From Candidatus Melainabacteria bacterium RIFCSPHIGHO2_02_FULL_34_12 (lineage in GTDB: Bacteria > Cyanobacteriota > Vampirovibrionia > 2-02-FULL-35-15), in the NCBI GenBank assembly GCA_001784555.1, contig MFRM01000006.1, positions 34,244 through 98,243 of the forward strand: a stretch of 64,000 nucleotides of DNA, in the 5' to 3' direction. Below the pieces are notes generated by a model, which saw nothing but the letters and a program-made list of their open reading frames with translations, ran no database searches and was not told the DNA's origin. Positions 63,519 through 63,656 of the stretch are shown piece by piece. The position numbers were made by a program, and so were the translations under genes. The first letter of the stretch is position 1, and each line of letters begins with the position of its first letter.

Positions 63519-63656
63519 TGTAAAGTTTTCGAGGATACAAGCGGGTGGCGCCGGAAGGGAAGGGTTCAGAGCGAGGAACTCCGTGACGAAGCTCTGAAGG
63601 GTACCTGAAGGCGACAGGACCCGCGCTGTAAAACAATATCCTCGAATGTTTTACAG
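63519..63656. ncRNA. Candidate structured RNA or GC-rich palindromic element upstream of rph. Outer helix gtaaagttttcgaggata / tatcctcgaatgttttac (about 16 of 18 positions pair), inner helix gcgggt/acccgc, and an apical 8-bp hairpin ttcagagc-[18 nt]-gctctgaa with purine-rich internal loops.
   Basis: Nested inverted repeats read from the sequence. The core is far more GC-rich than the rest of the window. Ends 35 bp before the rph ATG. Identity unknown. Confidence 0.35.

Follow-up and report, generated by a model that had tools for sequence, protein, structure and literature searches.

A GC-rich hairpin upstream of rph in a groundwater Melainabacteria genome is very probably a miniature inverted-repeat element with a hairpin cargo

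Background

The rph gene, encoding RNase PH, lies on the + strand close to the end of a 64-kb stretch of a groundwater Melainabacteria metagenome-assembled genome (MAG), Candidatus Melainabacteria bacterium RIFCSPHIGHO2_02_FULL_34_12 (contig MFRM01000006.1, positions 34,244 to 98,243; from here: the window). Ten proteins encoded in the window have identical counterparts recorded for this MAG. The gene order at this locus is an open reading frame (ORF) of 1564 aa on the + strand, an ORF of 58 aa on the − strand, an intergenic region and rph on the + strand. The subject of this study is a GC-rich hairpin element at window positions 63514-63660, directly upstream of rph. A first-pass annotation, made from the sequence alone, had described the major part of this element and had considered a structural RNA gene the usual source of such a GC island, leaving a novel small RNA (sRNA), an rph leader element or a palindromic repeat as options. 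Here we describe the element, its absence from orthologous loci, its homologues in sister genomes and the hairpin family to which its core belongs.

Results

Folded as RNA, the segment 63519-63656 forms a single long hairpin with a minimum free energy (MFE) of −56.6 kcal/mol, compared with a shuffle mean of −37.4 kcal/mol (z = −5.40); 0 of 200 shuffles equalled it. Over the full 147 nt (63514-63660) the MFE is −65.8 kcal/mol (z = −6.23), and the reverse strand of 63519-63656 also folds (−47.9 kcal/mol, z = −5.03). The GC content of the element is 54-56% vs about 27-35% in both flanks, in agreement with the GC island in AT-rich surroundings that the first-pass annotation had described. The outer helix, the inner helix, the purine-rich internal loops and the 8-bp apical stem with its 18-nt loop are likewise all found where it had placed them. 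Two features go beyond that description, namely a helix that reaches out to 63514 and 63660, and a perfect direct repeat that flanks it.

The ends of the element are two inverted-repeat arms of 24 nt each, as delimited by a repeat finder, with 20 of 24 positions complementary (83%). The left terminal inverted repeat, GGGTGTGTAAAGTTTTCGAGGATA on the + strand, occupies 63514-63537, and the same repeat occurs at 11 loci in Melainabacteria MAGs. The right one, at 63637-63660 on the − strand, reads TATCCTCGAATGTTTTACAGACCC on the + strand. Within these arms the outer helix, previously termed the long-range helix, pairs GTAAAGTTTTCGAGGATA (63520-63537) with TATCCTCGAATGTTTTAC (63637-63654). Both hairpin ends are abutted by the direct repeat TTGATGGTTG, which the repeat finder located at 63505-63514 and 63661-63670 with 100% identity. 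The corresponding target-site duplication is TTGATGGTT, with its left copy at 63505-63513 and its right copy at 63661-63669; the G that follows at 63514, with which the left inverted repeat begins, is repeated as well. The whole unit of 147 bp on the + strand is bounded by inverted repeats and a duplication, and only short, unsupported ORFs overlap it.

Inside the arms, the predicted fold and a covariance-model match at 63536-63629 define a GC-rich core hairpin, the cargo module, at 63541-63624 on the + strand. Its helix P1 pairs GCGGGT (63541-63546) with ACCCGC (63619-63624) and is followed by an internal loop in which GG (63547-63548) stands opposite ACAGG (63614-63618), and by helix P2 (63549-63552 with 63610-63613). 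The apical 8-bp stem pairs TTCAGAGC (63565-63572) with GCTCTGAA (63591-63598) and closes the apical loop of 18 nt (63573-63590). An alternative local hairpin, which includes the hexamer TTTACA described below, is given by a perfect 10-nt inverted repeat, CTGTAAAACA / TGTTTTACAG, at 63626-63656; this repeat is not kept in other copies of the element.

The RNase PH fragment in the window has 105 aa. Relatives were found with the full-length protein of 245 aa from a second assembly of the same contig (L002), which carries the identical element, and this query returned many RNase PH relatives at 70-84% identity. Five distinct orthologous loci (L011/L012, L013/L014, L015, L148 and L149), with RNase PH proteins 78-84% identical, were compared; a further relative with 69% identity (L001) contributed just 80 nt of upstream sequence. 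All five orthologous loci have the same order of a giant ORF (+), a small ORF (−), an intergenic region of about 220-310 nt and rph (+). According to the alignments A1 and A5, the relatives have intergenic blocks in common, among them two small palindromes and, directly ahead of the rph start, the TG-TA-AAT columns. In these orthologous rph-upstream regions, whose comparison the first-pass annotation had put forward, the GC-rich element of about 145 nt is present in the window alone and missing from all five relatives. Because it occurs in the window alone among the aligned orthologous loci, the element is a lineage-specific insertion and not a conserved part of the rph locus. The empty sites in the five relatives are too diverged to give a base-exact empty site. 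Contig L004, an independent assembly from the same organism, stops inside the element at window coordinate 63591, as would be expected if a multi-copy repeat had interrupted the assembly.

The inverted-repeat pattern GGGTNTGTAAANNNTTCGAGGATA was scanned against one genome per GTDB species and yielded 11 further loci, all of them in four groundwater Melainabacteria MAGs (three in nzgw191, one in nzgw192, one in NC_groundwater_946 and six in NC_groundwater_50_Pr7). At seven of the 11 loci the match is a full-length homologue of the window element; these lie at unrelated sites that are essentially intergenic, in both orientations relative to their neighbours. L017 is a close homologue, and the remaining six, spread over six different contigs of a single MAG, are near-identical copies; with one partial copy, the sister MAG has six plus one copies at unrelated sites on different contigs. 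Exact duplications of at least 9 bp, directly at the ends of the element, were found at four of these loci: L026 (CGTAAAAAT), L025 (CGACAACAC), L018 (GTTAGAGAC) and L019, where the direct repeat is exact over 9-12 nt around TTTTCATTT. At L017 the duplication matches at 9 of 10 positions. Pattern searches, the repeat finder, nhmmer and blastn-short found no further copies in the window and the first loci, and the inverted-repeat pattern gave 0 matches in viral contigs. The inverted repeat bears only a weak resemblance to IS6 or IS903-type ends, to which we give no weight.

The same inverted repeats also enclose other contents. L016 and L023, and L020 and L021, share the inverted repeats and have entirely different hairpin cores, designated types B and C (L016:5037-5192, L023:750-905, L020:~880-1069 and L021:~2800-3032). 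The two other cores read GTCATTCTGA...TCAGAATGAC and TGTCACTGCGAGG...CTCGCAATGACA, and we presume that both resemble hairpin repeats of many other genomes. Between the core of the window and L017 on one side and that of the six near-identical copies on the other there are compensatory changes: CGCC/GGCG became CACC/GGUG, AGG/CCU became GGGG/CCCC, and UCAGAGC/GCUCUGA became UCAAAAAC/GUUUUUGA.

The core was followed beyond Melainabacteria by scanning JGI metagenomes with a pattern of its base, GGGTGGCNCCGG-N40-70-GACAGGACCCGC (the base being written GCGGGUGGC...GACAGGACCCGC), which matched at least 120 metagenome loci. The following counts refer to the matches listed. Chance matches among them are L067, a collagen-like repeat, L033 and perhaps L106; the remainder are hairpins. 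About 110 unique copies fold to the same architecture. P1 consists of GCGGGU/ACCCGC plus about three variable pairs, the internal loop is asymmetric with 5′ GG opposite 3′ ACAGG, and P2 begins with CRCCGG/CCGGYG and continues in variable pairs. The apex is variable and has recurrent loop motifs such as GCGCAG...CGAGCA. The core length ranges from 65 to 110 nt across the family.

The median locus GC is 0.69, and the genomes of the family range from about 31% to above 80% GC. Five loci are below 50% GC: L078, L079 and L142, which look like Melainabacteria-type copies, L114 (47% GC) and the chance match L067. L079 (31% GC) has nearly the window's core in different AT-rich palindromic arms, which fits a nesting of the module in palindromic centres. 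At the high-GC end, L053 lies beside rpsG and fusA, and its EF-G has its best named relatives, with 86% identity, in Gammaproteobacteria MAGs. This affiliation means that the family crosses phyla, spanning at least Cyanobacteriota (Melainabacteria) and probably Pseudomonadota.

With a crude GC3-based gene call, 85 of 122 core copies were classed as intergenic, 9 as lying at gene edges and 28 as lying in long ORFs. On the same gene call, 44 of the copies that have a gene end no more than 150 nt away follow a 3′ end and 16 precede a 5′ end. In tandem gene contexts the core has the same orientation 16 times and the opposite one 15 times, hence no preference for the transcription strand. No recurrent protein family was found to adjoin the core. 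At several loci the cores form tandem or inverted pairs; the interiors of inverted pairs, compared in five cases, show no relation to one another, and no transposase-like protein was recognised in their ORFs by eye. Two inverted copies in L107:1566-3739 enclose a restriction-modification gene pair, the interior of an inverted pair in L050 holds ribD, and an Lhr-like helicase ORF in L140:3617-4252 contains two in-frame copies. No consistent target duplication of the core alone was seen by eye in the flanks of same-subfamily copies. A plasmid collection searched with blastn gave no copy, only short chance matches, and the core pattern had a single match in viral contigs, a chance one, within a coding repeat of collagen-like (Gly-X-Y) type. 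A literature search for conserved strings returned unrelated primers only.

Covariation was assessed in A3, a MAFFT alignment of 20 high-GC members with one apex type that was not fitted to any structure. Standard pairs fill 91.7% of its cells vs 35-41% when the partners are slid by 1-3 columns, and 90 cells are changed on both sides vs 10-25 in the slid controls. Such double changes occur in 13 of 27 pairs, and the covariation score was reached by 0 of 500 shuffles. The covariance model R1, representing 20 high-GC members, matches the window at 63536-63629 over the full model length with 28.1 bits (E = 0.0077), a match that is partly circular because the base sequence of the window had itself served to retrieve the family. 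In the Melainabacteria loci R1 finds all type A copies and nothing else. In 100 metagenome loci it gives 110 matches, about 11 of which are real + strand copies missed by the search pattern. These copies keep GCGGGU-GG-C and GACAGG(A/C)CCCGC, and their P2 covaries; the near-invariance of the core base in the family is partly imposed by the search pattern. The + strand is more stable in 92 of 110 copies, and the second pair of P2 is G-C, G-U or A-U and never A-C. Both observations hint that one strand folds, as RNA or as single-stranded DNA (ssDNA). The first-pass annotation had held that its view would fall if the element proved to be a multi-copy repeat lacking covariation. The element is multi-copy, as seen in sister MAGs, and its GC-rich core covaries strongly. 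Since it does so across a very large family, the intuition of selection on the core fold stands.

At the junction of the element and rph, a promoter scan reported the −35-like hexamer TTTACA (63650-63655, + strand), which faces outward and is part of the right inverted repeat, whose tip is 5 nt away. It is followed by a 16-nt spacer and the −10 hexamer TAAAAT (63672-63677) preceded by TG, giving 10 of 12 consensus positions. The extended −10 element TGcTAAAAT (63669-63677, + strand) is host sequence, and alignment A1 shows no variation in its TG-TA-AAT columns. Its end is separated by 7 nt from the rph start codon (ATG 63685, with a second ATG at 63691, as read from the translation), and the distance is similarly small in relatives. 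From this spacing, the rph mRNA is probably leaderless or nearly so in this Melainabacteria group. The left inverted repeat also has an outward-facing copy of TTTACA, as does the right tip of most other copies of the element.

Judged from these motifs, the element would lie upstream of the transcription start, where it appears to replace the former −35 region and to remain outside the rph mRNA. Because the conserved −10 is downstream of it, the element is not an rph leader, contrary to one option of the first-pass annotation.

Discussion

The feature upstream of rph is very probably a non-autonomous MITE (a miniature transposable element with inverted-repeat ends) of 147 bp (63514-63660) with a GC-rich hairpin cargo inside, and not an RNA gene of the rph locus. 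We base this reading on the small size, the inverted-repeat ends, the 9-bp duplication, the occurrence at several unrelated sites in sister genomes and the filled vs empty orthologous sites. Hence, among the options of the first-pass annotation, the palindromic repeat was the right one, in the form of a multi-copy mobile repeat; its general argument that a GC island is the footprint of a structural RNA gene finds no support at this site.

In the proposed mechanism, the two 24-nt terminal inverted repeats, which form the outer helix, would be recognised by a transposase encoded elsewhere that pasted the element in. The 9-bp staggered duplication points to a DDE-type transposase acting in trans; the insertion duplicated 9 bp of target (TTGATGGTT). 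It took place in an ancestor of the window lineage only, between the upstream part of the small-ORF/rph intergenic region and the extended −10 that the rph promoter has in common with its relatives. The right inverted repeat would then have placed its outward TTTACA 16 nt from the host −10, creating a hybrid promoter; as far as such motifs can tell, the insertion probably remodelled the rph promoter and may have strengthened it. The core would itself be a second repeat module, set into the MITE's palindromic centre, a reading suggested by the wide distribution of the core family and by the sister MITEs with other hairpins.

Several observations weigh against this picture. An autonomous insertion sequence (IS) or transposase with matching inverted repeats was not found, nor was there any repeat pair 0.7-3 kb apart at the 11 loci. 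L022, L024 and L016 lack a clean duplication, having none or only 5 bp. The window genome shows one copy in about 68 kb read, and the multi-copy state is seen in sister MAGs. The putative promoter effect is drawn from a consensus match. Finally, a passive MITE leaves unexplained the near-invariant core base across very different genomes and the covarying helices. The core must act in some sequence-specific way, whether as DNA or as RNA. Candidates for the upkeep of its base and fold are an enzyme recognition site on folded ssDNA, a protein-binding or terminator RNA hairpin similar to SPRITE, and template switching without selection.

The last point leads to a possibility that complements the MITE reading and that we take seriously without favouring it: the core could be an autonomous mobile or functional hairpin, as structured RNA or ssDNA with a protein-binding GG/ACAGG loop, for which the MITE is a local vehicle. 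The 120 or more metagenome matches with their invariant base and variable, covarying apex speak for it, as do the pattern-missed copies that keep the base while P2 covaries, the crossing of phyla indicated by the EF-G of L053, and the strand bias in stability (92 of 110) together with the second P2 pair that is never A-C. Module behaviour is visible from both sides, with a near-window core inside quite different palindromic arms in L079 and other cores in the same MITE frame in types B and C. However, neither a target duplication nor an associated enzyme was found for the core alone, and the invariance of the base is in part an artefact, being required by the search pattern. Template switching or gene conversion can keep a palindrome complementary without selection on the fold, and the balance of 16 same and 15 opposite orientations argues against a strand-specific role in mRNA. 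Speculatively, and with some doubt on our part, the core may represent an undescribed cross-phylum class of interspersed hairpins that propagates by its own sequence-specific mechanism, through a folded ssDNA or RNA intermediate, with the asymmetric loop as the recognition site of an enzyme or binding protein. Its marks would be an almost invariant base, made up of GCGGGU/ACCCGC, GG opposite ACAGG and the first part of P2, and a free, covarying apex. Members of such a class may settle in the centres of palindromes, behind genes where terminators are found, within other MITEs and even in frame in ORFs. Other known kinds of hairpin were considered for the core and set aside. The RYYYAAC and GTTRRRY boxes of integron attC sites are not in the sequences, and many core pairs are inverted. 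The REP/REPIN-RAYT system is rejected for the lack of a GTAG/CGTC tag and of a RAYT-like gene in the five inverted pairs, and kink-turns and known ribozyme cores were rejected on sequence features.

The readings of the element as an RNA of its own fare worse. An independent, trans-acting sRNA transcribed from its own promoter is unlikely. MITE-derived sRNAs have a precedent in Coxiella. The fold is very stable, QMITE elements gave rise to sRNAs (PMC10969869), and a weak promoter-like sequence, TTGTTA-17-TATGTA, can be read by eye at 63467-63495; it was not reported by the promoter scan. This option is rejected on account of the five relatives without the element at the rph locus and of its multi-copy occurrence in both orientations relative to its neighbours, and neither a U-tract terminator nor an Rfam family match was found. 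Very improbable is a cis-regulatory leader or riboswitch of rph: the element does lie on the same strand and 24 nt upstream of the start codon, but the extended −10 at 63669-63677, which is the sole promoter element to be conserved, comes downstream of it and 7 nt before the ATG. Moreover, relatives with the same rph arrangement do without the element, and the same element adjoins unrelated genes elsewhere. We give practically no credence to a divergent signal recognition particle (SRP, 4.5S) RNA or another known structural RNA. The long hairpin, its purine-rich loops and a likeness of CCGGAAGG to part of SRP helix 8 had suggested this comparison, which the first-pass annotation itself had drawn only loosely. 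The Rfam scan that it proposed found 0 families at gathering score across the 64-kb window, SRP RNA (RF00169 / RF01854) included. In 63300-63800, Rfam 15 gave no SRP RNA at E ≤ 10, only chance-level matches to ST7-OT3_3 and a Na+ riboswitch. As judged by eye, a GNRA-capped helix 8 and an AGCA-type loop are not seen, and the apical loop has 18 nt. Furthermore, six copies in one MAG and relatives without the element at the rph site are unlike a conserved, essential single-copy gene. The window has no tRNA or tmRNA genes. For the high-GC family loci, Rfam gave 0 of 20 at gathering and 0 of 10 at E ≤ 5, save an unrelated SECIS_3 match elsewhere in one locus.

Taken as a MITE, the outer element is of an ordinary bacterial kind, here in Melainabacteria and of a family that we did not find described in the literature. 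Among known systems, Nezha of Anabaena/Nostoc is a MITE of about 130-170 bp, and Chunjie of Geobacter has 21-bp inverted repeats and 9-bp direct repeats (PMC3184786). The window element resembles both in being small and non-coding, with terminal inverted repeats, direct repeats and a stable predicted hairpin, in its AT-rich intergenic targets and in its filled and empty sites (PMC3184786). It differs from them in the sequence of its inverted repeats, in that a parent IS was not found, in its non-photosynthetic host, and in its centre, an exchangeable GC-rich module common to unrelated high-GC bacteria. The supply of promoter hexamers by MITEs is well documented, for example for the Correia elements of Neisseria, which bring sigma-70-like sequence upstream of genes (PMC10969869). 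Similarly, the insertion immediately upstream of rph appears to bring promoter sequence, with TTTACA pairing with the host −10. Correia elements carry complete promoters of their own as well as an IHF site, and their duplication is TA, whereas this element would supply only a −35-like hexamer.

Very small repeats of Nostoc are reportedly nested in larger ones. Small repeats inserting into one another are known from the pneumococcal BOX, RUP and SPRITE elements (PMC10969869), and small dispersed repeats of 21-27 nt in Nostoc have been reported only in Nostocaceae (PMC5861425). The cores are similar to SPRITE in being terminator-like hairpin repeats; unlike all of these, they measure 65-110 nt, have a conserved asymmetric internal loop and occur across phyla and GC contents. 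The core copies resemble REP/REPIN sequences as GC-rich interspersed palindromes that lie for the most part outside genes, frequently close to a 3′ gene end and sometimes in inverted pairs. REP/REPIN sequences are species- or genus-specific and have a GTAG/CGTC tag and a RAYT, whereas the core base is common to very different genomes and carries no tag. Some high-GC copies are in frame in ORFs, e.g. in L140, and thereby recall the in-frame insertions of Rickettsia palindromic elements (PMC10969869). In contrast to the latter, the core copies are mostly intergenic (85 of 122), and there is no sequence relation.

The GC island upstream of rph is accordingly best treated as the footprint of a mobile repeat, and its annotation as an sRNA, an SRP-like RNA or an rph riboswitch is unwarranted. 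Locally the element may matter, as it would replace the −35 region of the rph promoter. More generally, the Melainabacteria MITEs are modular, combining the same inverted repeats with exchangeable hairpin cargo, and this modularity and the cross-phylum core hairpin exceed the usual picture of a MITE. Should the core family have its own mobilising or binding protein, it would constitute a new widespread system. At the minimum, the family, which has no Rfam 15 match, is a common source of false structured-RNA calls in metagenomes.

Neighbouring features of the window

The ORF of 1564 aa (58414-63108) has no Pfam match, and its C-terminal third appears hydrophobic and Gly/Ala-rich by eye. The small convergent ORF at 63123-63299 encodes 58 aa in the window and 69-71 aa in relatives. 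Both ORFs are syntenic with rph in every relative examined.

The intergenic region between the small ORF and rph contains the palindrome CTGACA-N14-TGTCAG at 63453-63478, which is unique in the window, with 0.03 occurrences expected by chance; L011, L012, L015, L148 and L149 retain it in the corresponding position upstream of rph. Next to it, at 63409-63425, is another retained palindrome, CCTAA-N7-TTAGG. The pair is a candidate for an operator or a small hairpin in the intergenic DNA between the divergent small ORF and rph.

Farther upstream, at 44846-55287, the window has a cluster of large proteins with FG-GAP/VCBS-like repeats, whose DYDGDG-coding repeat units account for the many direct-repeat families of the window.

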